A DNA stretch of 64,000 nt. It comes from a phage. The stretch is taken from the sequence record QB031382.1. One strand, written 5' to 3'. Shown piece by piece: positions 2,846-63,610 of the stretch. The translations under genes and the position numbers were made by a program. Position 1 is the first letter of the stretch; every line of letters starts with the position of its first letter. The notes below the pieces were generated by a model. That model saw only the letters and a program-made list of their open reading frames with translations. It searched no databases and was not told where the DNA came from.

Positions 2846-2856
2846 GGTGGCGGGAT

Positions 2857-3543
2857 ATGGCAGAGATTAAGTCGGATGTTAACCACATCCACACTCTGCC
2901 AGATTTTGTTCAGGGGGGTCTTGACTACCTGCCTGGAGATTTTCTGGCTGAGAAGGTTAATTTAGTCACATTCTTAACCGTGTACCTTAAAAGGTTGGAG
3001 GATGTTGATAAGATGCTGGTAGGTTTGGCTGAAGGAAGATTGCTTAACAATGCCAGCGGAAGATACCTTGACGAAGTTGGTAATCAACTTGGTATTCTTA
3101 GGAATGGACTTTCAGATGCTGATTTTCGTGCCACACTAATTATTCAGCAGGCCGCAGCATCAAGGGGCGGGACTCGCGAAGATGTCATCTCCACCTTGCG
3201 ACAATTGTTCGGAAGAGACAATTTCGATACGTGGAAAGGAGACAACTTCAGGCTTGACATAAATATTAGAAAAACTTGCTTTGACATATTGCAGTCTATT
3301 GATCAGATCTTAGACATGCTACCATTGCCTTGTCATTTGCGTCTTACAGAATCGCAAGGGCAAGCTTTTGGTTTTGAAGGGGACTCTACAGCTCTTGGCT
3401 TCGGATCGGTGTGGGAAGAAAACCAATTCGGAGTTGGTGGGCTGGCTACTTTGTTGTATGTTCCTGACGTAAGACCTGACTGGGACACCACAACCATTTA
3501 TTGTGAAAGTATTACAGTAAACGCAACTAGACAGGAGGGTTAA
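2857..3543 (+). CDS. putative baseplate/tail protein (gpI-like position)
   Basis: 228 aa directly after the J-like gene with good RBS; call is positional only. Confidence 0.3.
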   Translation: MAEIKSDVNHIHTLPDFVQGGLDYLPGDFLAEKVNLVTFLTVYLKRLEDVDKMLVGLAEGRLLNNASGRYLDEVGNQLGILRNGLSDADFRATLIIQQAAASRGGTREDVISTLRQLFGRDNFDTWKGDNFRLDINIRKTCFDILQSIDQILDMLPLPCHLRLTESQGQAFGFEGDSTALGFGSVWEENQFGVGGLATLLYVPDVRPDWDTTTIYCESITVNATRQEG

Positions 3544-5615
3544 TGGCAACAGCTGTTTTTAAACCTTACCGTGATTACTCTACAATGGCTGCACAGTTTC
3601 ATTACCGAACAGTTCAGGATACTGCTGTTCCTGGGAGGGATTATAATCATGTTGAGGGCGATGTAACTATCCCGGTTGGGGCAACCAGTATCGAGATCCC
3701 TGTAGAAATTGTTGACAAATTGCCAAACAGGTTGCCAAGAAGCTTCTTTATGGAGTTTTCATCAAACTCACAAGGGGTTATGATTGGAACACAAAGAGCG
3801 AAATGTACAATAGTTTCAGATGAGAATCTTGACAGAATATCTTGGGATACCGTTGAGGAGAGAATGTTTCACCCAAGATATTGGGTTACAACCACACAGC
3901 AGACTGAAAGCACCTGTATTGTTGCGGATAATAACTGCTGTATTAACCGTTTAGTGTCAAGAACATATGGAGGCATGGCTGGGTGCATTTGGGAAACAGT
4001 TGACAAGTATGACCATTTCGGCATTGGATTTGATGATCACTACGAGATGAGAAACACCAAGCTTTGGTTCAGAATGTCAATAACCAATGCCAGCAACTTC
4101 TCCACCCCTGAAAAGATGATTATGACTGTAGACCTTGTTGATGGCACAATCATCTATGTTCCTTTAGCTCAATATGCTGTCAGCATCTCAGAGGATAAGA
4201 ATGTTGCAGAAATTCATATTGATTTCGAGGACTGCGTCGGGATGGACCAGAACAACAACATGATGGGTGTTGATCCTCGGCAGGTGAGAAGGATTTTAAT
4301 ACCACTTATGCCTAAAGATTGGGTAAGTAATAGCACAGACCCAAGAACGGAAAATGTAGAGTGCGAGTTGCGTCTAGATCTGCTTCAGCCGGACACAGGC
4401 TGGAAAATGATGCAACTTAACAATATCCAGGTGAAAGAGCACGACGTCGGGATCTGCACAGCATATGACGATATGTGGAACGTATCTCCTTTAAGGGTGT
4501 TGAGCAATATCAAGCGTCTAGGCTATACCGGAACCATAAACCATTATGTTGGTATGAGCCATTATTATGATTACACATGGTCCGGAACTCAATGGTCTAT
4601 AAACAGAACAGGAGCTCTAAACGCTGCAGCTTACAAATGGCACGATGATTTTATGTACAATGCCAAACGACATGACTTTGATGTTATGCAGTCTGTAAGC
4701 TTTGAGCTTTACAGTGATGCCTGTCCGTTGGAATGGACCCAAAGGGATTGGAACGATAACTATGCTAAAACAGGCTATACACCTTGTAGTTACCTCCTGT
4801 CTCCAACCATTGAAGAGGGTATGAATTTCCTTACTGCAGTATTTAAGAATTTTGCATCAGCCGCTATGAGGAACAGCCTGCCAGTGATCATGCAGATTGG
4901 TGAACCGTGGTGGTGGTTCAATACCGATACTCGTAAGCCTTGTATTTATGACTACCCTACAAAACAGGCGTTTTATGATGAAACTGGTGAATATGCCCTA
5001 GACATTGGGACTATTGACGATCCTAAAACTGGTGGTGTTTATGACAAGTATGTAGCATTTTGTCGTGGTAAGCTTGGCGCTCGTATTGCAGCTATTTCAA
5101 AGGCAATAAAAGCACACGCTGCATCGGCTCAGATGACAGCCTTGCTGTTTTTCCCAACCATTATGGAAACCGAGCTTACGCAAAAACTGAACCTTGCCGA
5201 CCAATATAAAAAGGAAGCAGGCGCTCTTGATTTCTTCTGCACTGAGTGCTACGATTGGGTGATGCAGGGTGGTATTGAAAAGGCAAAAGAGTCTGTAAAC
5301 ATACCTATCGTTAAGTTAGGTTGGCAACCGTCTGAAATACAATACCTTGCAGGGTTCGTTCCTAGTAAAGAGCTTGCTCCAGTATATGGCTACGACCCAA
5401 CCAGGAATTACCAAGAATTTTTATGGAGATGTATTTGCGGAAACATGGCAACCATAGAGTATAGATACCCTGAGGTAAAACAGTATGTGTGGGCATACCC
5501 GCAAGTAATGTCTGACAGCATCACTGTTACCGCCAGAGATTCTACCGTGCTTCATATGGGGCAGGTTGCTCTGAAAGGGTATGTAGAAGATGTTGTCCCG
5601 CCAGACTTCTCATAA
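3543..5615 (+). CDS. hypothetical virion structural protein (690 aa)
   Basis: Long ORF, start overlaps upstream stop (TAATG), in tail module; no motif recognised. Confidence 0.4.
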   Translation: MATAVFKPYRDYSTMAAQFHYRTVQDTAVPGRDYNHVEGDVTIPVGATSIEIPVEIVDKLPNRLPRSFFMEFSSNSQGVMIGTQRAKCTIVSDENLDRISWDTVEERMFHPRYWVTTTQQTESTCIVADNNCCINRLVSRTYGGMAGCIWETVDKYDHFGIGFDDHYEMRNTKLWFRMSITNASNFSTPEKMIMTVDLVDGTIIYVPLAQYAVSISEDKNVAEIHIDFEDCVGMDQNNNMMGVDPRQVRRILIPLMPKDWVSNSTDPRTENVECELRLDLLQPDTGWKMMQLNNIQVKEHDVGICTAYDDMWNVSPLRVLSNIKRLGYTGTINHYVGMSHYYDYTWSGTQWSINRTGALNAAAYKWHDDFMYNAKRHDFDVMQSVSFELYSDACPLEWTQRDWNDNYAKTGYTPCSYLLSPTIEEGMNFLTAVFKNFASAAMRNSLPVIMQIGEPWWWFNTDTRKPCIYDYPTKQAFYDETGEYALDIGTIDDPKTGGVYDKYVAFCRGKLGARIAAISKAIKAHAASAQMTALLFFPTIMETELTQKLNLADQYKKEAGALDFFCTECYDWVMQGGIEKAKESVNIPIVKLGWQPSEIQYLAGFVPSKELAPVYGYDPTRNYQEFLWRCICGNMATIEYRYPEVKQYVWAYPQVMSDSITVTARDSTVLHMGQVALKGYVEDVVPPDFS

Positions 5616-9012: not shown

Positions 9013-10758
9013 ATGGCGCAAGACATGACAAGCTTCGAGCAGGCGGTAGATCAAGTAATTGTTGATTCTGAACGTTTGCACTTGATTGTCAACGGTAACG
9101 CTGTGGATGAAGTTGTCGTAGAGGATGGGACCACCATCCCTACGGTACGAAAAGCCATGCTTGACACCCTTTATTTTAAAACGCCACCAATCCCTTGGGC
9201 GTATGGTGCATCCACAACAGTTTTTAACCAGTTATATGAGTTTAAAGGGGACACAGGCCCTCAGTGGTGGTACGCTCCCGCAGCATCAAAATCTAACCCG
9301 GTTAGAATGCCAGCAGATCCTTCACAATCTCCGAACTGGAGATTATATACCGATTCTGCAGTAATGGCAAAATACTACGCAAAACTTAACAGCCCAAGAT
9401 TCGAAGGTGACCCGCGAGTACCTACACCTCCAATGGACGATAAGTCCGAGTCTATAGCAAACACAGAGTTTGTTGTGGACTATGTGGATAGCATATTTAA
9501 AGCCATGGAGGGGATGAAAGTTACTGTAGGGTCTTTGGTGGTAAAAGGTCTTACAGAACTTGCTAACACCATAGTTGGTGGCACCCTTACCTTACATGGG
9601 CCTGTTAATGGAGCGGATTCTACTGCACGCTTCAGGAACCTAATCCTTACTGCAAATACTTCTACACTGACTTTTGCGTGGAGCGATCCTAAGCATGCAG
9701 ACTGGAGAAGCACAGAGCTGCAACCTCATGAAGTAGCCACCCACAGAGTTATAGCTGACACTATAACTTCTGGGAAACCAGTGGCTAATAACAACGATGT
9801 GCATTTTGATGGTCTAGGTAATAACTTTTTTGACTACGTGTACATTCGTGGTAATGCCATGAAGGCAGCAACCGAACCGACATTGCAGGTCGATGGGACC
9901 ACCAGGGTTAAGAACCTTGAGGTGACAGGCACCGTTACAGGAATAACCTACTCTGTAGATGGCACCATGATCTACCCTAGCTATATTGAAAGCACAGGAG
10001 ATGCACTGATCAATGGAGATTTAGAGGTTGGCGGATCTATAGTCATTCGTGGCACAGCATCTGTCCAGAACATATCTTTAAATACTCTGAGGGTGAATGA
10101 GCGTGCCACTTTTGAAGGAGAAGGGCTTACAGCCAACAAAGGTGCAATTACCGAGCTGACAACCACTACTCTAACTGCAACAACTGCAAACTCTGAAAAC
10201 TGCAACGTTACCCGCAACTTGCAGGTAAATGGAGATGTTAGTTTAAACGCAGCAGGTACGGGAACCACTTATCTTCACAACCTTGGAATATCCGGCACGG
10301 TGACTGGGTGGCTGCCAGACTTCTCTAATGTTAACTTTGTCTGCAACGGCATTAACTCCAGTGGTAAGATAACCACCTCTCAAGAAATTGAGGCTGGTAA
10401 AACCATTACTGCCCCTACTTTCCACGCAGGAAAGGTAGATTTTGATTTAGAGGAGGTTGACGCATCTAGTGGGACATGGACACCTAACGGGCAGGCCAGC
10501 ATGTATGTTGTCCACGCGAAAGGGGATTTTACAATAGGCCAATGGCCTGGAACATCGGCTGAAGATAAACCTTACCCGTTTACTGCAATCATCTATGTCA
10601 TTCAAGATGCTGTAGGTCACAACGTGACTTTGCACGATAAGTATGCTATCCTGTCGGCAACACCTGTTATTAACAACAAGGCTAACAGTGTTACCTTGCT
10701 GCAATTAACGTATTGTGGTGTTGGTGATATCGTAGACGTAGTAATTGCACAACGTTAA
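9013..10758 (+). CDS. tail fibre / tailspike-like protein
   Basis: 581 aa, strong RBS AAGGAGA, Thr/Gly/Asn-rich repetitive beta-type sequence, in fibre block. Confidence 0.4.
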   Translation: MAQDMTSFEQAVDQVIVDSERLHLIVNGNAVDEVVVEDGTTIPTVRKAMLDTLYFKTPPIPWAYGASTTVFNQLYEFKGDTGPQWWYAPAASKSNPVRMPADPSQSPNWRLYTDSAVMAKYYAKLNSPRFEGDPRVPTPPMDDKSESIANTEFVVDYVDSIFKAMEGMKVTVGSLVVKGLTELANTIVGGTLTLHGPVNGADSTARFRNLILTANTSTLTFAWSDPKHADWRSTELQPHEVATHRVIADTITSGKPVANNNDVHFDGLGNNFFDYVYIRGNAMKAATEPTLQVDGTTRVKNLEVTGTVTGITYSVDGTMIYPSYIESTGDALINGDLEVGGSIVIRGTASVQNISLNTLRVNERATFEGEGLTANKGAITELTTTTLTATTANSENCNVTRNLQVNGDVSLNAAGTGTTYLHNLGISGTVTGWLPDFSNVNFVCNGINSSGKITTSQEIEAGKTITAPTFHAGKVDFDLEEVDASSGTWTPNGQASMYVVHAKGDFTIGQWPGTSAEDKPYPFTAIIYVIQDAVGHNVTLHDKYAILSATPVINNKANSVTLLQLTYCGVGDIVDVVIAQR

Positions 10759-32920: not shown

Positions 32921-34249
32921 ATGAGTAAAACCAAATTAGAACTTACCTGGGTAGGTAAAAACGAGCGCAAAAAGTTAGAGCCGCACATTTTGTTAGAAGA
33001 TTCTAGCAAATCTTACCACAGCCAGAAAGTGACCGAAAACGATATTTTTGATAATAAACTGATTTTTGGAGATAACTTATTAGCATTGAAGGCGCTAGAG
33101 CAAGAGTATGCAGGCAAAGTGAAGTGTGTTTACATAGACCCACCATTCAATACCGGGAGGGCTTTTGAGCACTACGATGATAGCCTGGAGCATTCCATTT
33201 GGCTGGGCTTAATGAGGGATAGGTTAGAAATAATTCGTAATCTTCTGAGTGATGATGGGGTAATATTCGTTCACTTAGATGGTTGCGAAATGGCGTATTT
33301 AAAAGTTTTGATGGACGAGATTTTTGGTCGTGCAAATCAGTTAAATACCATCTCGATGACCACAAATTCCCCTTCAGGATTTAAGGCAACAGGAGCCACA
33401 GTTTTCTCCACAGCAAACTTTTTGCTTGTATATGCAAAAGATCGCAACCAGAAACCGCTTAACAAAATCTATATACCTAAAGGGTATGATACAGGATATA
33501 ACAAATACCTATTAAACCCGGATGACCATTATAAAAATTGGACGTGGTGTGGTATTGCCGATGCGTTTGCAAAGGCCCATGGCTATAAAGATGCAAAAGA
33601 AGCCAAGAAAAAACTGCCTGACACATTCGATGATGAATTAGCACAATTCGCAATTGATAATGCAGAACGTGTATTTCAATCTGTTGCAATTGGTGGTGGT
33701 GCTAAAATAAAGAGAAAAGAAACTATCGAGAAGTCAAAGAAAGATAGGGATAAGGTTTATGTACATCCAAATGAGGATGTTGAAGGATTTTATATCGCAA
33801 ATGGTAGGCAAATGGTCTTTTACTCCAACAGGCTTTTGGAAATTGACGGTGAGATGCAGCCTGCGGAACTAATAACTGATGTTTGGACAGATATTAGTTG
33901 GAATGGAATAGCAAATGAAGGTGGCGTTAGTTTCAAAAATGGTAAAAAACCAGAAGCGCTTTTGAAGCGGATTTTCGAAATGTGTACGCGAGAAGGCGAT
34001 TTGGTATTGGATTCATTCGGTGGTTCGGGAACTACTGCTGCTGTAGCTCACAAAATGAAAAGACGTTGGATCTTGATCGAACTGGGTGATCATTGTCATA
34101 CCCATATTATTCCGCGCTTGGAAAAAGTGATCGATGGCGAAGATCAAGGTGGTATTTCTAAGTCTGTAAACTGGCAAGGTGGTGGTGGTGGCTTCCGTTA
34201 TTACAAACTTACCCCGGCCTTAATTGCGAAAGATATGTCTGATCAATAA
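32921..34249 (+). CDS. DNA methyltransferase, beta-class amino-MTase (N6-adenine or N4-cytosine)
   Basis: Motif IV DPPF (CVYIDPPFNTG) precedes motif I FGGSGTT (DSFGGSGTTAAVA); strong RBS AAGGAGA. Confidence 0.75.
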   Translation: MSKTKLELTWVGKNERKKLEPHILLEDSSKSYHSQKVTENDIFDNKLIFGDNLLALKALEQEYAGKVKCVYIDPPFNTGRAFEHYDDSLEHSIWLGLMRDRLEIIRNLLSDDGVIFVHLDGCEMAYLKVLMDEIFGRANQLNTISMTTNSPSGFKATGATVFSTANFLLVYAKDRNQKPLNKIYIPKGYDTGYNKYLLNPDDHYKNWTWCGIADAFAKAHGYKDAKEAKKKLPDTFDDELAQFAIDNAERVFQSVAIGGGAKIKRKETIEKSKKDRDKVYVHPNEDVEGFYIANGRQMVFYSNRLLEIDGEMQPAELITDVWTDISWNGIANEGGVSFKNGKKPEALLKRIFEMCTREGDLVLDSFGGSGTTAAVAHKMKRRWILIELGDHCHTHIIPRLEKVIDGEDQGGISKSVNWQGGGGGFRYYKLTPALIAKDMSDQ

Positions 34250-35512: not shown

Positions 35513-36277
35513 TTGAAATTCATCTACAAAGAACACTACCACAAAGGTGTTGTGTGGAGTCTATTTGACGGGTCTGGTGGTGCAGTTATTGACTGGGCAA
35601 AAGCTGGGTACCTGTGCCTGTGCTTTAATGCAGAAGGTGCTGACCACGGCAGTTATGCAGAGGTGATAACCGATCATCCAAATATTCACTATGTGGATTA
35701 TTGGATTGACCCATGGTTCCCTCAAGAAACTTTTTGCATGTATCCAGCTCCAGACTTTATTCTTGCATTTCCTCCGTGCACGCATTTAGCGGTATCAGGA
35801 GCTGCACACTTTAAGAAAAAGCTGGCTAAGGACCCACTGATCCAGATTAACGCTGTAAAGGATGCTCGGGTTGCAGAAGAGTTGGGAGAGATTTACGATT
35901 GCCCGTGGCATGTAGAGAATCCTGTGGGTGTTATGTCCACGCTGTGGCGCAAACCTGATTACCGTTTTCACCCTTCTGATTATGGCGGGTATTTACCGGA
36001 GGATGATGTAAACCCCTGGTTTCCTGAATTTATAGCTCCACGTGATGCCTATCCAAAAATAACTTGCGGCTGGATAGGTAATGGATTTATAATCCCGGTC
36101 ACAAAACCTGTCCCGCAAATAGTTGACGCGGTTAGCGGGTATTCCATGCAACACGCCAAGCTGGGGGGAAAGAGTGCAAGAACAAAGATGATTCGAAGCC
36201 TCACACCCCGTGGCTGGGCAAAAGCTGTATTCTTAGCAAACGAGCCTGCAGTAAGGAGCAGAATTAATGGGAAGTAA
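35513..36277 (+). CDS. cytosine-C5 DNA methyltransferase-like protein
   Basis: Motif I LFDGSGG, motif IV-like FPPCT (PCQ variant), motif VI ENPVG, C-terminal RSLTPRGWAKA resembling motif X; start taken as TTG after RBS AGGAGA, uncertain. Confidence 0.5.
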   Translation: MKFIYKEHYHKGVVWSLFDGSGGAVIDWAKAGYLCLCFNAEGADHGSYAEVITDHPNIHYVDYWIDPWFPQETFCMYPAPDFILAFPPCTHLAVSGAAHFKKKLAKDPLIQINAVKDARVAEELGEIYDCPWHVENPVGVMSTLWRKPDYRFHPSDYGGYLPEDDVNPWFPEFIAPRDAYPKITCGWIGNGFIIPVTKPVPQIVDAVSGYSMQHAKLGGKSARTKMIRSLTPRGWAKAVFLANEPAVRSRINGK

Positions 36278-38345
36278 ATTTATGGCATCTGCATACAACC
36301 GTTTCGGTGAGCCAAACCCGAAAGCAACTAAGTATAAAAGTGGGGGAAGTGTGAAACGAGACTATCGTGATGAAAAAGAAGTTGAAACTGTAGAGACTGT
36401 TTTAGAAAATACCAAAATTGTCCCCGTCCCACAACAAAATATCGGTCTGATGGCTGCACAATATTTTGGTGTGCGATCAGCATTATCCCAAGAAGATGGT
36501 GTGACAGTCACTGCAACATATTTCCCATATTACGACCGCTACGGAAATCTGTCCGGTTTCAAAAAGCGTGACTGGACGATTCCTAAAGAGCAAAGAGGCC
36601 ATTTCTCCGTTGTTGGCATAGTAAAGGCTAACTCTCAGATGTTTGGTCAAAAGCTGTGTGCATCTTCCAACAACCGTAAGCAGATTAACGTTTGTGAGGG
36701 AGAAGGTGATGTTATTGCAGCATGGCAGGCTGCATATCAGATACAAGTAAAAGGGATTCTCACCAACGCTAAAGCCCCGGCAAAGGTGAAACAGTGGGCT
36801 AAAGAGGTCCAGGACGGGATCGATGCAGTTATCAACGGTGGCGATCTGGCAGGAAAACCATGCCTGCCTTTTGTTGGAATTAACTGTGGATGTGCAAACG
36901 CAGTAGATACTTTTGCAAACAATGAGAAGTTTATCCGTAGCTATGGAACAGTTGTGCTGGCAATGGATAACGATGCAGCTAACGAGGTAGAGAAGCAAAA
37001 ACACGTCATTAAAGGTGTTGAGGCCACGCACAATATCGCAGCATTTTTGATGGCTGATAACGTTTACCACGTGGAATATCCTGGCGAGGTAAACGACCCT
37101 GATGGTGTAAAAGATATCCGTGACATGCTGAAGGCTAAAAAGCTGGAAGATATTGTAAACATGTTCCGGCATCCTGTTAAGTATGTGCCGGATGCTGTGT
37201 CGGATTTAGAAGACTTCTCTATCGAATCTTTGCGGAAAAAGACTTCCAACGGGGTAGATATCAGCGCAGAGTTCCCAAAACTGCAAAAAATGCTGAAAGG
37301 CTTGCACAAAGGGACACTCGTAATGCTTACAGGGCCATCAGGGGGCGGTAAAACAACTGTAGCTAAAAAACTGGAACATTGTATTGCAAGATACTTGATG
37401 GACCCGACATGCCCGAAGGCCGATGACTATGAAGAGGATGATCGTCTATGCATGATCCATCTTGAGGAGGACCCAGAGGAAGCAATTAACTCCTTGTATG
37501 CAAACCAGTTAGGGTTTGATGTTAAAGAGTTTGTTGAAGATCCTAGCCAGTTTTTAACTGATCAAGAACACGCAGAGATTCACCAATCATGGGCAAAAGC
37601 TGGAAAAATCAAAGTGTTCAAACATTTCGGATCTATTCCGGTGGACGAGTTGATTACCAAGCTTAAGCAAATGGTTTGCCTGTACCATTGCCGTTATATT
37701 GTGCTGGATCACCTGTCCATGGTAATTTCAGGGCTTAATGTTAAGGATGAGCGAAAAGAGCTGGACATGGCTATGACCCAACTGGCTGCGTTTTGTAAGC
37801 AGTTTAACGTGTTTATCCTAGTGATCGCTCACCTCAAACGTACAGAGATTGTGCCTCCTAAGGACAAGGATGGTAACCCGTTACCTTTCTGGTATCCTGT
37901 GCGAAAAGAGAATTTGCGAGGATCGGCTGGGCTTGAACAGTTGAGTTGGGTAGTCATAGGTGTTGAGGCTGAAGAAATGGTAGATCGTTCTCGTGGTCGT
38001 GTCCGTTTAGTAGGTCTTAAAAACCGTCCAGCAAAAACATTGGGTATTGCGGATACTTTGGTTATGGACCCACATACAGGTAAGTTCCATGATGCCAGTA
38101 ATTGGTACTGGGACAAAGAAATGCAGATGTTTACAGACGGAGAAGGTGGGGAGGTTGTTTGGAGACCTCAGGCCATGTTTGAGGACCAAGAGCATGCAGT
38201 TGTAGAAACACCTATGGGCAAGGTTGTAGCTGATAAGGTTGTAACTCCTACTATTAAGCCTGTTGACACGCAGGAAGACCTCCAGTACGATGATCCATCT
38301 TCTGATCCGGTCCCCGGTTTTGAAGATGATGAAACACCTTTTTAA
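36267..38345 (+). CDS. primase-helicase (TOPRIM primase fused to DnaB/gp4-like helicase)
   Basis: TOPRIM acidic motifs VCEGEGD and LAMDNDAANE; helicase Walker A LTGPSGGGKTT. Confidence 0.7.
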   Translation: MGSKFMASAYNRFGEPNPKATKYKSGGSVKRDYRDEKEVETVETVLENTKIVPVPQQNIGLMAAQYFGVRSALSQEDGVTVTATYFPYYDRYGNLSGFKKRDWTIPKEQRGHFSVVGIVKANSQMFGQKLCASSNNRKQINVCEGEGDVIAAWQAAYQIQVKGILTNAKAPAKVKQWAKEVQDGIDAVINGGDLAGKPCLPFVGINCGCANAVDTFANNEKFIRSYGTVVLAMDNDAANEVEKQKHVIKGVEATHNIAAFLMADNVYHVEYPGEVNDPDGVKDIRDMLKAKKLEDIVNMFRHPVKYVPDAVSDLEDFSIESLRKKTSNGVDISAEFPKLQKMLKGLHKGTLVMLTGPSGGGKTTVAKKLEHCIARYLMDPTCPKADDYEEDDRLCMIHLEEDPEEAINSLYANQLGFDVKEFVEDPSQFLTDQEHAEIHQSWAKAGKIKVFKHFGSIPVDELITKLKQMVCLYHCRYIVLDHLSMVISGLNVKDERKELDMAMTQLAAFCKQFNVFILVIAHLKRTEIVPPKDKDGNPLPFWYPVRKENLRGSAGLEQLSWVVIGVEAEEMVDRSRGRVRLVGLKNRPAKTLGIADTLVMDPHTGKFHDASNWYWDKEMQMFTDGEGGEVVWRPQAMFEDQEHAVVETPMGKVVADKVVTPTIKPVDTQEDLQYDDPSSDPVPGFEDDETPF

Positions 38346-38403
38346 TGTTTAACAAAGAGTGGGAGGGGTAGTACAACCGCCTCCCCTTTAAGGAGAACTG
38401 TAT

Positions 38404-40827
38404 ATGAGCATGTGGTCGTTCGATTTTGAGTCATCCGGTTTGCTGGAAGACCCAGATCTTTATTATCACTGCGGTCTGTTTAAAGAGTTGAATAAGAACC
38501 GTTTTATGCTGTTCCTTCCTCTAAATGACCGCACACACTACTCCGAGGAGGATATAGAAAAGGCTAAGAACTTCATTCTGGCAAAGAAAACTCTTTATAA
38601 AGATTTTGAAGTTCGCATAGCAGATTTTTCGGAGTTGGAAGGTTGGCTTACAGGAAATTCTGACTGGTCACCAACAGCTTTGAACTGCCATAACTGCTAC
38701 AGTTATGACTTTATGCTGATGGAAAGATTATCCGGTATTCATTTTGATATGTTCCGTGATCCTAAATGCATGGGGACTATCAACGACCACCAGGTTAACC
38801 TGTTTGATACGTTGGCGATGAGCCGAATCTTATGGCCTGATCGCCCTTTACCAAAAGGTTGTCCTGACTCCGTATTCAACCCGGTTACTAAGAAAATGCA
38901 GCCTGTTGGTCCTCACGGCCTTATGGCATGGGGCTACGCCCTTGGTAACCAGAAAGTTCAAATTGATGACTGGCGCGATCTTCCGTTGTGGAAGTATGTG
39001 GATCGTGTATTCGAGGACGTTATCATCCAGGAGCTGCTCTGGAAAGAGCTGGTAGCGGAATCAAAAGGTGTATTCTACGGCAAATCTGACATGCAGAACT
39101 TTATGTACGATCCTGCCAAAGAGAAGCCGAAAGGGTTCAAGAAGATCACCTGGAAGAACGCATTGCGCCGGGGTATGCTGCAACACTTCCTGATGGAGCT
39201 GCAGGCCCGTCAGGGTGTGTATTTTGACATAGATGGGGCTATTGCTTTACGTGACCGTTGCGATGCGTGGATGAAAGAAATCGCTGATCGTGTTGAACCA
39301 CAACTACCTTTAAAAGAGCTGTCAATGTCTCAGCGGCCCAAGTTCCCTGAAAAGCCGTTTAACCAAGATGGGACAATCTCCAATAATGGTTGGAAATGGT
39401 TAAAAGATAAGCTTGGCTATCCTGTGGACATGAGCGCTTTAGAGTTCAAAGCCCCACCTAAGCGAGCATTTACCTCCACAGGGGATGTCAGTAAGATGGG
39501 GATAAAATGGTGTGAAGAGATGGGCTGTAAAGACCCTGATAAGATGGCTGATTTCTTGAGGGGCTATATTAAGGGCACTTCCACACCACAACCTTTACCT
39601 AAAGAGCTAATGGATCAGGCAATAAGTGATCTACAGCAGAAGCGAATGCCTGACTGCAAGATACCTATGAAAATCAGCAATCAGGACGACATTAAGCGAT
39701 ACCTGATTAGTGCTGGTTGGCTTCCGACAATGTGGAGAACTAAGGATGTAACTAAAGACAGCAAGAAGAAAGCTCTACCTGATGCAGATGTTGATGCACG
39801 AGTATATGCATATATGGACGAGCTTTTAGAGTCAGAGTATTGTGACCTGATTATCAACTTCTGGAACAAAACTGATGCTAAGTTCCAGACAACCGTGCAC
39901 AAGTTCCGAAGCTTTCCTAACTCCGAAAGGATTAAAAAGGAAGTATTCGGGAAAATACGTAGAAAAGCTAGGGCACTTATTACTTCTCCGCAACTGAAAG
40001 ATACGTTTGGACACCTATGCCCTAATCTTGAAAAATTGAACGGAGAGATGGCTAAAGATATCGTCTTGTGGTTATCATTGCGAAACCGCAGATCGGTACT
40101 TGATCCAATTAAGGAGGATAAGGTTGATACTGGTCTTCTTAATCACCCACGTTTGAAGATTGACCATAAGCTTCCTGCTAAAAGTTCTGGGTTAACAAAC
40201 ACTTCCCGACAGAAACACAGTATTTGTGCGAACATGCCTAAACCATCTCCTAAAGTGGTTATGGGTAAAGAGATGCGTAGTCTGTGGGGTGTTCCTCCGG
40301 GATACTTTGAGATCGGTATTGACGGGTCCAACTTAGAGCAGCTTATCGGGGCTTGGGGTGCCTTTGAGTTCGACAACGGCTTGTATTATGATGTTGTAAG
40401 TAACGGGGACGCACACCAAAACAATGCTGAGGCATATACAAAAGTAGCAGGCAGAGAGGTGTCTCGTAACGACGGTAAACCTATCACGTATGGGGTTATG
40501 TACGGGGCACAAAAAGATAAAGTTGCAGACATGCTGGATATCTCTCCAGAGTTGGGGCAAAGGGTAATCGATGCGCTTTGGGATGCCAACCCCGGTCTTA
40601 AGGGGCGTAAAGAGGATCTAGAGAAATTCTGGGAAGCAACAGGTAAGAAATTTATCTACTCTTTTGACGGTCATGCCATTTGGACCCGCTCTAAACACTC
40701 TTTGCTTAATGCATATCAGCAAAATGGCGGTGCCTCGTTGTGCGACTTGGTCGGAATCCTCATGCACCACCAAATGGTGAAGCGTGGATGGTATGATGAG
40801 GGTGTTCGTCGTATTATTTATTACCAT
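38404..40827 (+). CDS. DNA polymerase family A, exon 1 (3'-5' exonuclease, polymerase motifs A and B)
   Basis: Exo motif FDFESSGL; motif A IGIDGSNLEQLIGAW; motif B RNDGKPITYGVMYGAQ; tail aligns with T7 gp5 up to just before HDE; the in-frame stop at 40831-40833 is intronic. Confidence 0.8.
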
Positions 40828-41155
40828 AAATAACATTGTGGCTTCGTGCAGTGATGCACGTCGAAAACCTCTTTAATTGACGGGAAGGCTAAGTTGACTT
40901 TTACACCTAAACATGGTAAAAGCTCAATATGCTAATCCGCAGCGAAGCATCCGAGAGGATGAACGTTCAGAGACTATCGAAAGCATAGCTCCAACATAGT
41001 TTGGTGTGAAGAAGCGAGTAGAGTAGGCCAGCAAGTGCGGTCGAAATGAGAGGTGCCTTGGTAACAAGGCAGTGAGATAGTCCGATCCATACGGGAAACT
41101 GTATGGCTATGCACGTAATGGTGCGGGGTAGCTTAACGACCTACCTGAACTATTG
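40828..41155 (+). ncRNA. group I self-splicing intron (no internal ORF)
   Basis: Conserved P/Q/R/S elements in order: AATTGACGGGAAG (40875), AATCCGCAGC (40934), GTTCAGAGACTA (40965), GAGATAGTCC (41074); exon ends in U (40827) that can pair with GTGG guide at 40838; intron ends in G (41155); splicing gives YYH-DEYQLQV. Confidence 0.8.
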
Positions 41156-41509
41156 GATGAGTACCAACTTCAAGTACCTGACACACCGAAGTATAAGACT
41201 GTGTACACCTTCGACACAATCGAAGAACTGGAAGCATTTAAGGCAGAGCAGGAGGCCAAACTTCATGTGTTCGACGGTCATAAGTACAAAAAGGCACGCA
41301 AGGATGAGGACGGAAACGAAGTGGTTGACAAGGACGGAAATACGGTATACGATCCTATCTTGAACGATGACGGAAAGCTTGAACTTATCTGGAGCCCTGT
41401 GGGCGAAATGGTGGTGCATTGCTTCTGGCAAGCTTCTAAAATGATGGGCGTTCCGTTCCAGATCACAGGTGAATACTTGTGTGGTCGTAATTGGGGTGAT
41501 TGTCACTAA
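41156..41509 (+). CDS. DNA polymerase family A, exon 2 (motif C HDE and C-terminus)
   Basis: Starts GAT GAG (D-E of HDE); ends GRNWGDCH, comparable to T7 gp5 C-terminus GPNWAICH. Confidence 0.75.
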   Translation, partial: DEYQLQVPDTPKYKTVYTFDTIEELEAFKAEQEAKLHVFDGHKYKKARKDEDGNEVVDKDGNTVYDPILNDDGKLELIWSPVGEMVVHCFWQASKMMGVPFQITGEYLCGRNWGDCH

Positions 41510-41558
41510 TGTAAACTATCAACACATGGAAGTGTTGTTGAGCAAAGAGGAGACTTTT

Positions 41559-41843
41559 ATGGTAGTAGAACCAACAAAAACATTTACATCCATGACTATC
41601 CCTGTTATTATGCAGGTGGAGTGTGTTCAGGTATCTCAAGTGTGGCCAGGCACTAAAATCCCAACAGGGCCTGATTTCTTTCAGGTTGGCAAAGTGTACA
41701 ATGTCTGGAAGGCACCAGATTGTTACCCTTTCATCAAAGATGACCGTGGAATGCTGTGGTATCTTGGAAATGATTTGACACTGCACCTTGGGAATGCTAT
41801 TATTGCAGTATTCAGACTTAACAAGAAGGAGACTGATCAATGA
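41559..41843 (+). CDS. small protein, KDDxG paralog family member
   Basis: Start at ATG with RBS AGGAGA; motif GKVYNVWKAPDCYPFIKDDRGMLWYL. Confidence 0.4.
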   Translation: MVVEPTKTFTSMTIPVIMQVECVQVSQVWPGTKIPTGPDFFQVGKVYNVWKAPDCYPFIKDDRGMLWYLGNDLTLHLGNAIIAVFRLNKKETDQ

Positions 41844-42067
41844 CGACTTTGGTTAAAGCTACCTTTGTAGAAGAAAAGATGACAGACCTGTCATTCTTTA
41901 AAGAAGGAAAGACCTACGAGGTTTATTACGATAAAGCTCGTGCAAACAAGATGATTAAAGACGAGGAAGGGATTGCTTGGTTTATCTCCCATCTGGCAAA
42001 CGGTGAGTATCATATCTACGGAACCACCCTGCTTGCCAAGTTTGTAGCTGTTGAAGAGGACCTATGA
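41840..42067 (+). CDS. small protein, KDDxG paralog family member
   Basis: 75 aa; GKTYEVYYDKARANKMIKDEEGIAWFI. Confidence 0.4.
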   Translation: MTTLVKATFVEEKMTDLSFFKEGKTYEVYYDKARANKMIKDEEGIAWFISHLANGEYHIYGTTLLAKFVAVEEDL

Positions 42068-42258
42068 AAGTAAAGTATCTGGCTGAGGGTATGAGTAGGT
42101 ATTTCACCCTTGGTGAAGAATATTGGCCCTTTACGGAAAATGGAGATGTATACGTGAAGGATGACCAAGGTGTGCCGTGGTTTCTGCACCATAATGGGTT
42201 GGGGTATTCCATCTACTGCGGTGCAGTGAACAACACAACCCTTGCAGAGTTTGTCTAG
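42064..42258 (+). CDS. small protein, KDDxG paralog family member
   Basis: 64 aa; GEEYWPFTENGDVYVKDDQGVPWFL. Confidence 0.4.
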   Translation: MKVKYLAEGMSRYFTLGEEYWPFTENGDVYVKDDQGVPWFLHHNGLGYSIYCGAVNNTTLAEFV

Positions 42259-42268
42259 AGGAGGCAGA

Positions 42269-42640
42269 ATGTTAGTAAAAGGTACCCACACAGTAAAGCA
42301 ACGTATTGAAGTTGAGATCGATGATTGTGAGCTGAAGCATATTTTGCGGTCATGCTCCAACGTTTTGCTCCTTAGTATTCTCCAGGAGCGAGCGGAGAAC
42401 GAGTTCTTAAATGCACTGGCAGGCCGTCCTGGGGACTTCTGTGTGCGTAAGCGTGAAGATCATAAGTCATGGTTGTGGGAAATCGATGCCGACTGGGATT
42501 ACCACAAAAATGAGGGCATAGATGAGCCTATTCGTGAATTGACAGATAAAGAGATTCAGATGTACAATGAAGTTTGTCATTGGGCAAAACGCCAACAAAT
42601 TTACCTCGACCCTGTGTGGATGATTGAAAATAGCCATTGA
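42269..42640 (+). CDS. hypothetical protein
   Basis: ATG after RBS AGGAGG; about 123 aa. Confidence 0.4.
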   Translation: MLVKGTHTVKQRIEVEIDDCELKHILRSCSNVLLLSILQERAENEFLNALAGRPGDFCVRKREDHKSWLWEIDADWDYHKNEGIDEPIRELTDKEIQMYNEVCHWAKRQQIYLDPVWMIENSH

Positions 42641-42665
42641 CAAGAAGTAAGATTGGATATAAGAT
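42637..42665 (+). promoter_or_regulatory. sigma70-like promoter
   Basis: -35 TTGACA overlapping upstream stop, 17-bp spacer, -10 TAAGAT. Confidence 0.45.
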
Positions 42666-42716
42666 GCTTCACACAAACAGAGAGTTGATTTTTAAATAAT
42701 TGAGGAGACTGCCAAG

Positions 42717-42971
42717 ATGAAAATTACTTTGAAGCCAGAATGCGTTGCAAATGACCGAGCTTTTAAAGATTGCACAGTCGGTGCAATTTATGAAGCAGAG
42801 TTTTGTGAGAACCCTCTGGTAAAAGCCCTTCTGGAAGAAGGGGCCCCTTTATCACAAGAAGAGATTGATGAGCTGGAAAACTCAGCACAGTGCCTTACCT
42901 TTAAAGATGACGAAGGAGACTCTGTCTGGTGCACTGTTAATGAAGTAGTTTTTGTAAAACCTGAACATTAA
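42717..42971 (+). CDS. small protein, paralog of 43035-43307
   Basis: 84 aa; shares RAFKDCT and KDDEGD...CT motifs with next gene. Confidence 0.45.
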   Translation: MKITLKPECVANDRAFKDCTVGAIYEAEFCENPLVKALLEEGAPLSQEEIDELENSAQCLTFKDDEGDSVWCTVNEVVFVKPEH

Positions 42972-42974
42972 TAC

Positions 42975-43003
42975 TTGACAACAGTGATGTGGCCTAATAT
43001 AAT
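42975..43003 (+). promoter_or_regulatory. sigma70 consensus promoter
   Basis: -35 TTGACA, 17-bp spacer, -10 TATAAT; the ORF-track TTG start at 42975 is this -35 hexamer. Confidence 0.55.
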
Positions 43004-43034
43004 GGCCCTATCGAAACGGAAGGGGATCACAGCA

Positions 43035-43307
43035 ATGACCAAACAATATCAACGAATTAAAGCCAAGGTTAAGCCAGACTACTTGGAGAAGGACTCTGCT
43101 TTTCGGGACTGCACCGCAGACAAAGTTTACACAGGGGCCGTCCTGTTGAACGACGAATTTGAAGTGGATGTGCTGGGTAAAGAGGCTACTATCAAGGACG
43201 ACCAGGGAGATTATGTTTGCTGCACCACACGCGAGCTAGAAATCTTAGAATACTTCGGTGAAATCTTCACCTCTCTTGATGATTACTTAGATGATGAGGC
43301 AGAGTGA
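43035..43307 (+). CDS. small protein, paralog of 42717-42971
   Basis: ATG after RBS AAGGGG; motifs SAFRDCT and KDDQGDYVCCT. Confidence 0.45.
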   Translation: MTKQYQRIKAKVKPDYLEKDSAFRDCTADKVYTGAVLLNDEFEVDVLGKEATIKDDQGDYVCCTTRELEILEYFGEIFTSLDDYLDDEAE

Positions 43308-43708
43308 TGAAAAACATTTGGGATATCAATATCTTTGAAGCCTCTGAGCTTGACGGTGCCGATGGGGTTATTATAGTTTCTGATGGAAAGGCAACACTGA
43401 CCTCTGGACTGACCTATGAGGACACTACCTACGCATTGGGCGATCTTGCCTTGTTGAAATCAACAGGCGACTCTCTGGAAGAACGTCTGCAAGGATTTGC
43501 CTTTAAAGAAGGCACAAACACCACACTGATGTGCACTACACGCACTGTTCAGTTGGGCAACGGGGTATATATGGTCATTGCAGTGTGCCCCAAATTCAGC
43601 AACATTAATAAAGATGATGCTGACGCTGTCAACGACGTGGTTGTCCTATTCGTGGGTGACGCTATGGCAGATCTGATGAATGCAGGAGAAGCAGCAAATG
43701 AAGACTGA
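43304..43708 (+). CDS. hypothetical protein
   Basis: 134 aa. Confidence 0.4.
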   Translation: MMKNIWDINIFEASELDGADGVIIVSDGKATLTSGLTYEDTTYALGDLALLKSTGDSLEERLQGFAFKEGTNTTLMCTTRTVQLGNGVYMVIAVCPKFSNINKDDADAVNDVVVLFVGDAMADLMNAGEAANED

Positions 43709-44000
43709 AAACATTACACCAGAAGGATTCCTGAAAGTATACCGTGAACTATTGTATACCACAGAGGATAGTGTTCTAGAGTACCCAGAATATCTTTTGC
43801 TGTATAAGTATCTGCAGGAAGCTGGTGAAAATCTTCCAATTAGCGCAGAAGGTGGTCCAAACTGGGTCTACAGTGCATGGAGAAAGGTTGACATTCTCCC
43901 AGATCCCGGTAAAGATATGGTAGTTTGGCAGCTTATCAACAACATCGGGATTCCAATCTTTGATGAAGCTGTTAAAATCTATTTTGAACTTGACGATTAA
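43698..44000 (+). CDS. hypothetical protein
   Basis: ATG after RBS GGAGAAG. Confidence 0.4.
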   Translation: MKTENITPEGFLKVYRELLYTTEDSVLEYPEYLLLYKYLQEAGENLPISAEGGPNWVYSAWRKVDILPDPGKDMVVWQLINNIGIPIFDEAVKIYFELDD

Positions 44001-44017
44001 TATCAGGAGACCTTAAG

Positions 44018-44263
44018 ATGGCTGAAGTAGTTGCTCGTGCAGGACAGAAAGTGCGTTGTGTTGAAGTGGGTTTTGGTGGCAAAGGGTGTCAAAACTTGAC
44101 TCAAGGTAAGGAATACACTGTTGTTTCTGGCGGTGGTGACGAAAGTATTGTGTTCGATGACCATATTCTGGATGTTGAAAACTTTGAAATAATTGATGAT
44201 GATGGTGATCCGATCACCTGCCTGCTGAACGGGAGTTGGGGTACTTTCGAAGTAATTGGCTAA
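44018..44263 (+). CDS. small protein, distant KDDxG-family-like
   Basis: 81 aa; QGKEYTVVSGGGDESIVFDDHIL. Confidence 0.35.
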   Translation: MAEVVARAGQKVRCVEVGFGGKGCQNLTQGKEYTVVSGGGDESIVFDDHILDVENFEIIDDDGDPITCLLNGSWGTFEVIG

Positions 44264-44345
44264 CAAATATCTGTTGTAATTTACAGAAGGAGATGCTAAA
44301 ATGGTGTCTCCTTTATGTTGTTCAAATAAAATCGGAGATTCCATA

Positions 44346-44711
44346 ATGGAACAAATGAACGATCAAGCGTCGGTTGCGATGAACGAGCAAGAACAACCTC
44401 AAGAATTTTTCTTAGGGTTAAGCAAAGATCAGGTGTCTCTCCTGCTAGTGCTCTCTTCTTTCATGGGGAGACTTCAGGAGCTCACACAACAACCAGAGGC
44501 TGAACAATTATTTCAGGCTCTGCGCGAAGAAGAAAAATATCGTCGTTTGGATTATGCCTTAGGTTGGGTAGCTCAGCAACGAGATATGCTAATGGCCCTT
44601 TCTGGGACGACAAGTTTTGCAATGGGCCTGTTGGCTCAAGTGCAGGACAAATTAATTCAAGCAGGGTTTGCACACACAGCAAACACCAACGAAGAACAAG
44701 GAGACAAATAA
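44346..44711 (+). CDS. hypothetical protein
   Basis: ATG after RBS GGAGA; Gln/Glu-rich. Confidence 0.4.
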   Translation: MEQMNDQASVAMNEQEQPQEFFLGLSKDQVSLLLVLSSFMGRLQELTQQPEAEQLFQALREEEKYRRLDYALGWVAQQRDMLMALSGTTSFAMGLLAQVQDKLIQAGFAHTANTNEEQGDK

Positions 44712-45937
44712 TGAGCGTTATTCAACAATTTGCCAACCCGATGAATCCGCGTGAAACTGTTTTACTGGCTCACGGCATGATTAAACGTGTCAGCATCAAA
44801 CCTATCAAAGGTGCTGATCCTACAACAGGTATTAAAACCACTGTGTGGCAAGGTAAGAAAATCGAGTCCAGTCACACCATCTCTTTACTGATTTCTGAAC
44901 TGGATTCTTCTGATAACCTACTTCAAGGTGGTGAAGAAGTTTGGATCAGTATGGGTGATAAATTGCTCAAACCTGGTCATCAAGATTCCGTCTCTGTTAA
45001 AATTGATGACAAGTGGGAAACAGTAACGCCAGGATGGATCGTAAATATCCCTTTAAAGGCAAATGAGCATAACGGTAAGACCTACTACAAAGGCTCATTG
45101 GCTAAAATGGTTAAGCTGGGGGCAGGAGAGGCTCCAGCAGCTCCACAGCAACAAAAACAGCAACAAGGCACACAATCACAAGGCCAGAAGCAGAAACCTC
45201 AGCAGAATGCCAATCAGGACGTTTTACGCATCTATGGTGATGTGACTCAGATTGTTGGTAACGTGGTTACTGTCAATGACCACAAGATTGGCGAAGGTGC
45301 TATGGTTGTCTCCGATGAGCAGCTTAAAGACCTGGTGGTTGGCGGTCGTGTTGCAGCTATTGTTGACAAAGACACCGGGAATATTATCAGCGGCTTCAAG
45401 GCCTACCCGCCTAAAGCAGAGAACGGTACACAAGGTTCTGGTGGTAAGCGTAAATCCTCTTACGACCCCATTGGTGTAGAGACAGGGCACAGTATCAATG
45501 CGTTGCAGATCATTCTGGATCGCGGGTTTAAGATTGACAGCCCTTTAGATGTGGCTAAAACATTGCACGTGGTCACCATCGAGCTTAAGAAAGAGTACGC
45601 TCAAGCCACCAACCGGACTGAAGATGAAGTAGGTGCCAGTGTTGGTAACGCGGTATTGAATGCTTGTCGCCGTATTGACAAGAAAACGAAAGTTGATGAT
45701 TTTGCAGCAGCAATTACTGCAGAGGCAAAAGATGTCTTGACTAATCTTGCTGAACCGTTGTACGATTGGATCAAGAATGGTGCGGGGACTACTGAGCATC
45801 AAGAACCTCAAGCTGCCAAACAGGAAGCCACTCCACAGCAAAACACTGTAGATGCCCCTCCTGTAGATGATGACGGAGATGACCCGATGGATCAGAATCC
45901 GGCACAATACGCCTTTGATGATGACATTCCTTTTTAA
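44711..45937 (+). CDS. SSB-like protein with acidic C-terminal DDDIPF tip
   Basis: Start ATG after RBS AAGGAGA; terminal ...AFDDDIPF matches the bacterial SSB C-terminal tip; Gln-rich linker; N-terminal body not a clear canonical OB fold by eye. Confidence 0.5.
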   Translation: MSVIQQFANPMNPRETVLLAHGMIKRVSIKPIKGADPTTGIKTTVWQGKKIESSHTISLLISELDSSDNLLQGGEEVWISMGDKLLKPGHQDSVSVKIDDKWETVTPGWIVNIPLKANEHNGKTYYKGSLAKMVKLGAGEAPAAPQQQKQQQGTQSQGQKQKPQQNANQDVLRIYGDVTQIVGNVVTVNDHKIGEGAMVVSDEQLKDLVVGGRVAAIVDKDTGNIISGFKAYPPKAENGTQGSGGKRKSSYDPIGVETGHSINALQIILDRGFKIDSPLDVAKTLHVVTIELKKEYAQATNRTEDEVGASVGNAVLNACRRIDKKTKVDDFAAAITAEAKDVLTNLAEPLYDWIKNGAGTTEHQEPQAAKQEATPQQNTVDAPPVDDDGDDPMDQNPAQYAFDDDIPF

Positions 45938-45951
45938 CATCTAGTTAACAT

Positions 45952-45980
45952 AGCCCTGCCCGAAAGGGTGGGGCATTTTT
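45952..45980 (+). terminator. rho-independent terminator
   Basis: Stem CCCTGCCC-GAAA-GGGTGGGG then CATTTTTG; duplicate of 35467 element. Confidence 0.55.
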
Positions 45981-45999
45981 GTATAAGGAGATCTGAAAA

Positions 46000-46416
46000 A
46001 TGACATTAGAAGATATCATTGTTAAACCTGAGAACTATGACCAATACAATCTATCAACTCAATCTGTGGACCTTGGATGCGCCACTGCCAGTGCGTGGCT
46101 GGTTAACGGAAAAGAGCTGGATAAATGCTTAGAAGCTCACATGTCTATTAACAAGTTTCTGGATGAAAATACTCACTGGCTTGAGGGTGCAGGCGTATAT
46201 GCTTCATGGTTGGAGAGTATGGGATTCGACTACCAATCTGAAGAGGGGTGGTGGAGCTATTTAGCTATCTGTCCAGAGACGCTACAATGCTTCATGAAAT
46301 ATTCTGAAGATTTGGAGTACCGGGCGATGGTTGATAGTGCTATTGCCCGTTATAGCCGTAAACCTTTTTCCCACGACATTAAAACTGTGGAAGAATTTGT
46401 TGAAGTTTTCTGTTGA
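46000..46416 (+). CDS. hypothetical protein
   Basis: 138 aa, RBS AAGGAGA. Confidence 0.4.
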   Translation: MTLEDIIVKPENYDQYNLSTQSVDLGCATASAWLVNGKELDKCLEAHMSINKFLDENTHWLEGAGVYASWLESMGFDYQSEEGWWSYLAICPETLQCFMKYSEDLEYRAMVDSAIARYSRKPFSHDIKTVEEFVEVFC

Positions 46417-63358: not shown

Positions 63359-63610
63359 TTAACGTTCTACAAAAATACCGTTCAGTTCAATAACCAGGAA
63401 TTTCTGGTCTTCACTATCGTCTCGTGCCAGAACCTCACAGACGTATCGGTCATCCCCATCATCATCGCAGTCAAATACAAGACTGAGGACTTTATCATGG
63501 TAAACCTTCGCCACTACCGCCTCGTAAGTATTGCCGATTGTGAATCCAAGATAATCTCCGATGCATTTGACAACAACATGGTCGCCAGCATTTAAGTCAA
63601 TCTTCGTCAT
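63359..63610 (-). CDS. small hypothetical protein
   Basis: ATG at 63610 preceded by RBS AAGGAG on minus strand; ORF-track upstream extension lacks RBS. Confidence 0.4.
   Translation of the reverse strand: MTKIDLNAGDHVVVKCIGDYLGFTIGNTYEAVVAKVYHDKVLSLVFDCDDDGDDRYVCEVLARDDSEDQKFLVIELNGIFVER

Follow-up and report, generated by a model that had tools for sequence, protein, structure and literature searches.

The stretch of phage DNA considered here, 64,000 nucleotides of sequence record QB031382.1 (referred to as the window), holds at positions 41559–44263 a series of very small genes, which raises the question whether these genes are related to each other and what an array of such proteins may do for the phage. 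The window is that of a Vequintavirus, an rV5-like myovirus of Escherichia coli, and its positions 38000–46000 match 128 phage records, the best being Escherichia phage FV3 (96.6% identity over 100% of the query). Every gene of the interval is annotated as "hypothetical protein" in both FV3 and rV5. The genes, here named A to I, are all located on the plus strand downstream of the primase-helicase and DNA polymerase genes (Table 1). A preliminary description of the window had proposed a tandem array of at least five consecutive open reading frames (ORFs) of 64–95 amino acids (aa) with a recurring core, and the peptides it quoted were all found in their places. The comparisons reported below show that A, B, C and I represent one phage domain of ~55–70 aa, amplified by tandem duplication directly downstream of the polymerase, to which E and F very probably belong as well.

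Relationship among the genes of the array

Pairwise relationships were addressed by Smith-Waterman alignment, each score being compared with those of 300 shuffles and expressed as z. The values obtained for E-F (14.3), B-C (11.3), A-B (9.6) and A-C (5.0) were not equalled by any of the 300 shuffles, and on the level of sequence A, B and C are clear paralogs, as are E and F of each other, while scores between the groups are weak (C-F z = 2.5, E-I z = 3.9). A hidden Markov model (HMM) made from the repeats of four unrelated metagenomic proteins, containing no sequence of the window, was run against 1379 ORFs from the window and its relatives. It recovered C (E = 2.8e-9), I (4.7e-8), B (6.9e-6) and A (2.4e-5), the next real gene below these being E (E = 0.096). 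The recurring motif thus reflects homology, as had been assumed, and since gene I is recovered by this repeat-only HMM it is a firm member, extending the set first noticed, in which it had not been named. A Klebsiella phage also holds a homolog of gene I (Smith-Waterman z = 14.3). The array is interrupted and not strictly consecutive, since D, G and H, for which no significant similarity to any member was found, sit between the paralogs A-C, E-F and I, and of the features first described for the shared sequence the core holds for the family while the tail rich in W, Y and C is common only within the subgroups.

When tested individually against the family HMM, E and F reach only E = 0.1–0.2. 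Aligned as a pair with the family by hhalign, they show the motifs in register (P = 1.3e-4), and after adding divergent orthologs a probability of 78% (P = 1.8e-5) was obtained, while the F ortholog of a sister lineage (see below) matches a family HMM free of E and F with E = 1.3e-4. Only four of the 232 non-member ORFs of the window reach hhalign P < 0.01, E and F being two of them, and in a joint alignment the insertions found in E, F and I occupy the same loop, between β2 and β3. From these alignments E and F are probably divergent members of the family, and the profile check that the preliminary description had called for comes out in favour of A, B, C and I and with probability for E/F. 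A structure prediction of E shows a helical insertion within the β2-β3 loop, but this is not independent evidence because it was built on the family alignment. A search of contigs with the E/F alignment matched only two rV5-like contigs.

A possible seventh member, ORF K, is situated far from the array. This acidic ORF of 83 aa (MTKIDLNAGDHVVVKCIGDYLGFTIGNTYEAVV...DCDDDGDDRYVCE...) gives E = 0.0047 with the family HMM among the 1379 ORFs and is top of the 232 non-member ORFs of the window in hhalign (P = 3.2e-5), and no significant pairwise Smith-Waterman score was found for it.

PHROGs splits the six genes into six families, all of "unknown function" (Table 1), and each gene is found full-length in its own PHROG with E-values of 1e-26 to 1e-67. 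Their common origin is visible there only as weak cross-matches, B matching the PHROG of A, B and C both matching phrog_3249, and E and F matching each other's at 8e-6. A word-indexed protein search using B, C and a family alignment of 24 sequences returned only close orthologs (79–98% identity) and no distant relatives. One ortholog of A, the 116-aa protein P0045, carries an internal duplication of ~11 residues across the motif (...KAPDCHPFIKEKAPNCYPFIKDD...).

Searches of the window genes in NCBIfam and PADLOC gave no matches and Pfam gave only sub-threshold matches for the array genes, H (DUF7238) excepted, while the family profile, C and I, when searched against PDB sequences, had no match below E = 0.3. 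No publication on these rV5 genes was found in the literature searches, and in the rV5 genome paper the array genes and their paralogy go unmentioned.

Predicted fold and relatives of the domain

Protein B was modelled by AlphaFold2 on the family alignment of 24 rows (predicted local distance difference test, pLDDT, 90.1; predicted template modelling score, pTM, 0.76). The model shows the barrel topology of the five-stranded SH3 fold in a small six-stranded barrel (strands 3–10, 25–31, 36–40, 46–48, 56–60 and 64–70) whose β1-β2 loop, which contains a short helix, is prominent as in Gp54 of Escherichia phage Bas11. The domain is thus predicted to be a standalone SH3-like small beta-barrel, the A/B/C branch having the rare six-stranded form of Gp54. 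When the motif is placed on the model of B, its G23-K24 come before strand β2 and Y26 is within that strand, K40-D41-E42-E43-G44 make up the last part of β3 together with the β3-β4 turn, and W47 is found in β4; in the family in general G-K-x-Y-x-V opens β2, (K/I)-D-D-x-G forms the end of β3 with the β3-β4 hairpin, and the next aromatic residue is located in β4. Since the motif maps to strands and a turn, the recurring core is the skeleton of the fold and not a catalytic site. Most of the variation among the paralogs is found in the two loops β1-β2 and β2-β3, the latter holding the insertions of E, F and I, and in C-terminal extensions.

The best structural match to the model of B, and a close one, is Gp54 itself (PDB 9AXB; together with CapRelSJ46, 9ERV). 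Gp54 is a non-essential protein of 66 aa and unknown function, its six-stranded barrel topology is called "very rare in nature" with SH3 as nearest classical relative, and it directly activates CapRelSJ46, a fused toxin-antitoxin defence protein, by binding its antitoxin domain; CapRel is not triggered even by the close Gp54 homologues of Bas5, Bas8, Bas10 and SECphi27 (PMC11578894). The link to Gp54, whose sequence was taken from the Bas11 genome, is on the level of fold only because no sequence relation was found: identity is 14%, and the GKxYxV and KDDxG motifs are missing from Gp54. Bas11 is a member of the Drexlerviridae, a different phage family from that of the rV5-like window. The family, first described as uncharacterised, is therefore so with regard to function, the Pfam, NCBIfam, PADLOC and PDB searches being negative or sub-threshold and the PHROGs of unknown function, but not with regard to fold.

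The likeness to canonical SH3 domains and other small beta-barrels (KOW, Tudor-like, integrase C-terminal domain) is likewise seen at fold level only; compared with canonical SH3 the A/B/C branch adds a sixth strand, and the family domains are found either singly, each encoded by a tiny gene, or as 4–5 tandem repeats in phage proteins. A Foldseek search of BFVD showed that many small phage proteins, all uncharacterised, share the fold (template modelling scores of 0.7–0.8), and a Vequintavirus, T1-like phages and Cronobacter phage CR9 are among their sources. Among named families, gene I matches Pfam DUF7244 (PF23896) with 15.6 bits, under the gathering threshold of 27 bits, and A, B, C, E and F have no match to it at E <= 1, while no window gene matches DUF6501 (PF20111; gathering threshold 23.8 bits). 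The fused relative P0051 (see below) passes DUF6501 at 41.4 bits and nearly passes DUF7244; weak DUF7244 matches occur in gene I and in several of the repeats within the fused proteins. The two Pfam families consist, like the present one, of short beta-barrel domains that stand alone, and the present family borders on both of these SH3-clan families. DUF7244 has recently been reported as a separate SH3 protein next to the lysis cassette of Drexlerviridae, the T1-like phages (PMC13164509), whereas the rV5 family sits in the replication region. In Bas11 (L017) several tiny ORFs other than Gp54, at 33759–33929, 42369–42554 and 45147–45338, give weak matches (E = 2e-3 to 1.5e-2) to the family HMM; the one located directly upstream of the holin gene could be the SH3 of DUF7244 type known from Drexlerviridae.

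More distant relatives were found by an exhaustive HMMER search with a profile of A, B and C against 1.84 billion representative proteins, giving only 13 matches at E < 1e-3. Besides orthologs these comprised two 67-aa relatives of B (P0049 and P0053) and four multi-repeat proteins (P0047, P0050, P0051 and P0052; 270–571 aa) with 4–5 tandem copies of a unit of ~55–60 aa, approximately VKCV...G...LT.GK.Y.V.....DGD.....DD.G... It is from the repeats of these four that the repeat-only HMM was made. Two further matches, P0048 (a Calx-beta protein of 3231 aa) and P0054 (a low-complexity repeat), were discounted, their scores being probably spurious sums over repeats. All identified relatives are located on phage or phage-like contigs, the multi-repeat proteins within modules for replication or nucleotide metabolism. 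The gene of P0050 is situated directly behind a nucleoside deoxyribosyltransferase gene, that of P0052 between the DnaB and Toprim primase genes, and that of P0047 near a Prim-Pol gene with a second multi-repeat gene adjoining. Because fused proteins of 4–5 repeats occur in other phages, the separate rV5 proteins may act together or multivalently. On the metagenomic phage contig of P0047 (L014) two adjacent multi-repeat genes (358 and 346 aa) span 2550–4668, and at 10279–10689 a protein of 136 aa consists of one family domain fused to DUF3310.

Divergence, selection and possible function

The two 67-aa relatives P0049 and P0053 share one Vequintavirus-like contig of ~137 kb from E. coli assemblies (L021–L024; GCA_012894635.1, GCA_034560175.1 and run SRR25571739 for L021, L023 and L024), the sister lineage used for comparison in Table 1. 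It contains six tandem copies of B/C type, compared with two in the window, together with A', E', F' and I', and a gene with an Ead_Ea22 domain has been inserted behind A'. While backbone genes of this lineage are 84–96% identical to those of the window, the family members reach only 42–73%, and the family is fast-evolving and variable in copy number. Within the genus A is conserved to 98–100%, while B of the window is 100% identical to that of APECc02 and others and 89% to that of FV3, and E to I are 100% identical to FV3; the array is thus a mosaic within the genus and would therefore contain recombination breakpoints. No members were found in the regions flanking the polymerase in 4MG, KB57, EspYZU15, Hena1, W70, phiTE and PBES02, representing other Vequintavirinae genera, nor in a separate stretch of the CR9 genome, the best match anywhere among these having E = 0.09.

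The members are bona fide genes, with ribosome-binding sites, and B is held by 118 phage records, E by 116, all of which also contain F, and I by 140. When dN/dS (the ratio of nonsynonymous to synonymous substitution rates) was computed against six relatives (Table 1), the values indicated a selection that is purifying but relaxed; a single outlier of 0.8 for B against L018 comes from very few substitutions (dN 0.017, dS 0.021).

The explanation that we hold, with moderate confidence, to be the best overall is that the amplified SH3-like barrels are non-enzymatic acidic binding modules, most probably for host proteins. The net charge is about -12 in E and F, about -10 in I and K (range -10 to -12.5), -4 in B and C and ~0 in A, and binding of nucleic acids is unlikely for most members because of the negative charge. 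Each paralog would show a different surface on the common scaffold, the variable loops setting its own partner. The partners would most probably be host proteins, in takeover or counter-defence, as the preliminary description had thought typical of such loci, or possibly components of the replisome, and the proteins would, by analogy with Gp54 of Bas11, probably be dispensable accessory factors. Partners among the host proteins would fit a Gp54 that is dispensable and at the same time visible to an immune sensor. Several points weigh against this explanation. Homology to Gp54 was not detected from the sequences (hhalign P = 0.35; best Smith-Waterman z = 2.9, to B), no gene-wide positive selection was found by dN/dS against the six relatives, the membership of E and F depends on a P of ~1e-5 and a single bridging ortholog, and a role related to replication would agree just as well with the recurrent position of the family inside replication modules.

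A more specific form of binding to host proteins, to which we assign a low probability, is an array of diversified decoys or inhibitors, each barrel binding and neutralising, or being sensed by, a different host immune sensor as a multi-copy counterpart of Gp54. The number of copies would then rise and fall with the defence repertoire of the host population, and the multivalent proteins of other phages would be fusions of these modules.

The main rival, likewise rather unlikely, is that the proteins serve the replisome or nucleotide metabolism as accessory adaptors, binding the polymerase, the primase-helicase or the SSB-like protein encoded after the array. This would agree with the location of the array between the genes of the polymerase and the SSB-like protein (ending in ...DDDIPF), with fused relatives between DnaB and Toprim, near Prim-Pol and beside a nucleoside deoxyribosyltransferase, and with the conservation of A within the genus. 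However, members are only 42–73% identical between the sister lineage and the window, compared with 84–90% for polymerase and SSB, with which they would have to keep in step, their copy number differs between lineages, none is found near the polymerase in the sampled other genera of Vequintavirinae, and the fold relative Gp54 is non-essential.

It also seems improbable, and to a somewhat higher degree, that a stable scaffold has merely been reused for unrelated jobs, in which case ancestry would be uninformative on any shared function and some copies may be near-neutral passengers. Few folds are functionally as promiscuous as SH3-like barrels, BFVD has dozens of such small proteins across phage genomes, the weak matches in Bas11 lie at different genomic positions, and constraint is relaxed with dN/dS up to 0.24. 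These values are nevertheless well under 1 and every copy is retained in more than 110 genomes, and the genes A, B and C are clustered and translationally coupled, as judged from the ATGA sequences in which the stop codons of A and B overlap with the start codons of B and C, suggesting co-expression and related roles.

Lysis-associated or cell-wall-binding SH3 proteins, resembling those of the T1-like lysis cassettes (PMC13164509), appear very unlikely: the weak match of gene I to DUF7244, a family of the SH3 clan, points in that direction but lies under the Pfam cut-off, the array is situated in the replication region away from the lysis genes, and the proteins are strongly acidic with no signal sequence or membrane anchor evident by eye, no predictor having been used. 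That the shared motif is a chance or compositional similarity of unrelated short ORFs, which the weak scores between groups and of E and F individually would allow, is barely credible in view of within-group z values of 5–14 unreached by shuffles, the independent repeat-only profile recovering A, B, C and I at 1e-5 to 1e-9, the few non-member ORFs that score as E and F do, and the bridging F ortholog with P = 1.8e-5 behind the E/F link, and for A, B, C and I it is largely refuted.

Compared with the searched annotations, family libraries and papers, what is new is that six "hypothetical" genes, found in every rV5-like phage, are tied to one domain (E and F with probability), and the domain both to Gp54 of Bas11, a proven trigger of a bacterial immune protein and the only case of its rare fold with a solved structure, and to the fused multi-repeat proteins that unrelated phages carry in their replication modules. 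The fold was already known, since the nearest solved relative was published in 2024, and the family finding does not yet reveal a mechanism. Vequintavirus phages find wide use in biocontrol and are represented in the BASEL collection, and the family offers concrete candidates when this genus is screened for triggers and inhibitors of defence, while the series of paralogs and copy numbers forms a natural set for studying how a minimal barrel scaffold diversifies.

Gene list, promoters and neighbouring genes

Table 1. Features in and around the array, with positions in the window, dN/dS against six relatives and protein identity between the sister lineage and the window.
Feature	Position	Strand	Description	dN/dS	Identity
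Primase-helicase	36267-38345	+
DNA polymerase, N-terminal exon	38404-40833	+		0-0.01	90% (polymerase)
Group I intron	40818-41105	+	Rfam Intron_gpI, full-length model, 75.6 bits, E=2.4e-19
DNA polymerase, C-terminal exon	41153-41509	+		0.01-0.08
Gene A	41559-41843	+	94 aa; family member; 35-aa N-terminal extension; phrog_12922	0-0.09	73%
Gene B	41840-42067	+	75 aa; family member; modelled six-stranded beta-barrel; phrog_12623; rV5 ORF223	0.12-0.20 (outlier 0.8)	42%
Gene C	42064-42258	+	64 aa; family member; phrog_12802; rV5 ORF222	0.03-0.17	69%
Gene D	42269-42640	+	123 aa; unrelated, inside array; phrog_6273
Promoter-like site before E	42637-42665	+	sigma70-type, TTGACA-17-TAAGAT, 10/12
Gene E	42717-42971	+	84 aa; paralog of F, probable divergent member; phrog_12544	0.06-0.16	66%
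Consensus sigma70 promoter before F	42975-43003	+	TTGACA-17-TATAAT, 12/12
Gene F	43035-43307	+	90 aa; paralog of E, probable divergent member; acidic C-terminal tail; phrog_11936	0.06-0.24	48%
Gene G	43307-43708	+	133 aa; unrelated; phrog_8284
Gene H	43698-44000	+	100 aa; unrelated; Pfam DUF7238 (PF23885), 30.0 bits, cut-off 27 bits		96%
Gene I	44018-44263	+	81 aa; family member; phrog_4927	0.13-0.18	59%
SSB-like protein	44711-45937	+	408 aa; SSB in one record		84-90%
ORF K	63359-63610	-	83 aa from MTKIDL; possible seventh member, outside array

The gene A is the same as ORF224 of rV5, for which a longer start is annotated. For gene F an ORF of 110 aa starting with TTG was rejected and the ATG behind the promoter was taken as start. 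The two promoters that the preliminary description had ascribed to individual members were both found, the one before F with full consensus and the one before E with two deviating positions, and the equivalent of the latter is annotated in the rV5 record as the sigma70 promoter P220. In the region as a whole 37 promoter-like sites of sigma70 type were found, compared with 20.4±4.0 in shuffled sequence. According to the rV5 genome paper the array genes belong to a transcription unit apart from the late morphogenesis genes, and the picture of a diversified tandem family of paralogs beside replication genes and behind sigma70-type promoters is supported. Gene H differs from its neighbours in the conservation between the sister lineage and the window (96% compared with 48–72%) and is by far the most constrained small gene of the cluster.

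The DNA polymerase gene is split by the group I intron, which in the window lacks a homing endonuclease. In FV3 and CM1 its position is taken by an HNH gene; the sister lineage (L023) has an uninterrupted polymerase of 925 aa. A tip of the type ...DDDIPF is a hallmark of bacterial SSB C-termini, and the SSB-like protein encoded after the array ends in ...AFDDDIPF. The primase-helicase has a similar acidic end, ...EDDETPF, which suggests putative tail-mediated contacts within the replisome.

Among the database records, sixteen or seventeen rV5-like genomes with ~94% identity to the E. coli phage of the window are deposited as "Campylobacter phage" with Campylobacter jejuni as host, which looks like mislabelling or contamination.

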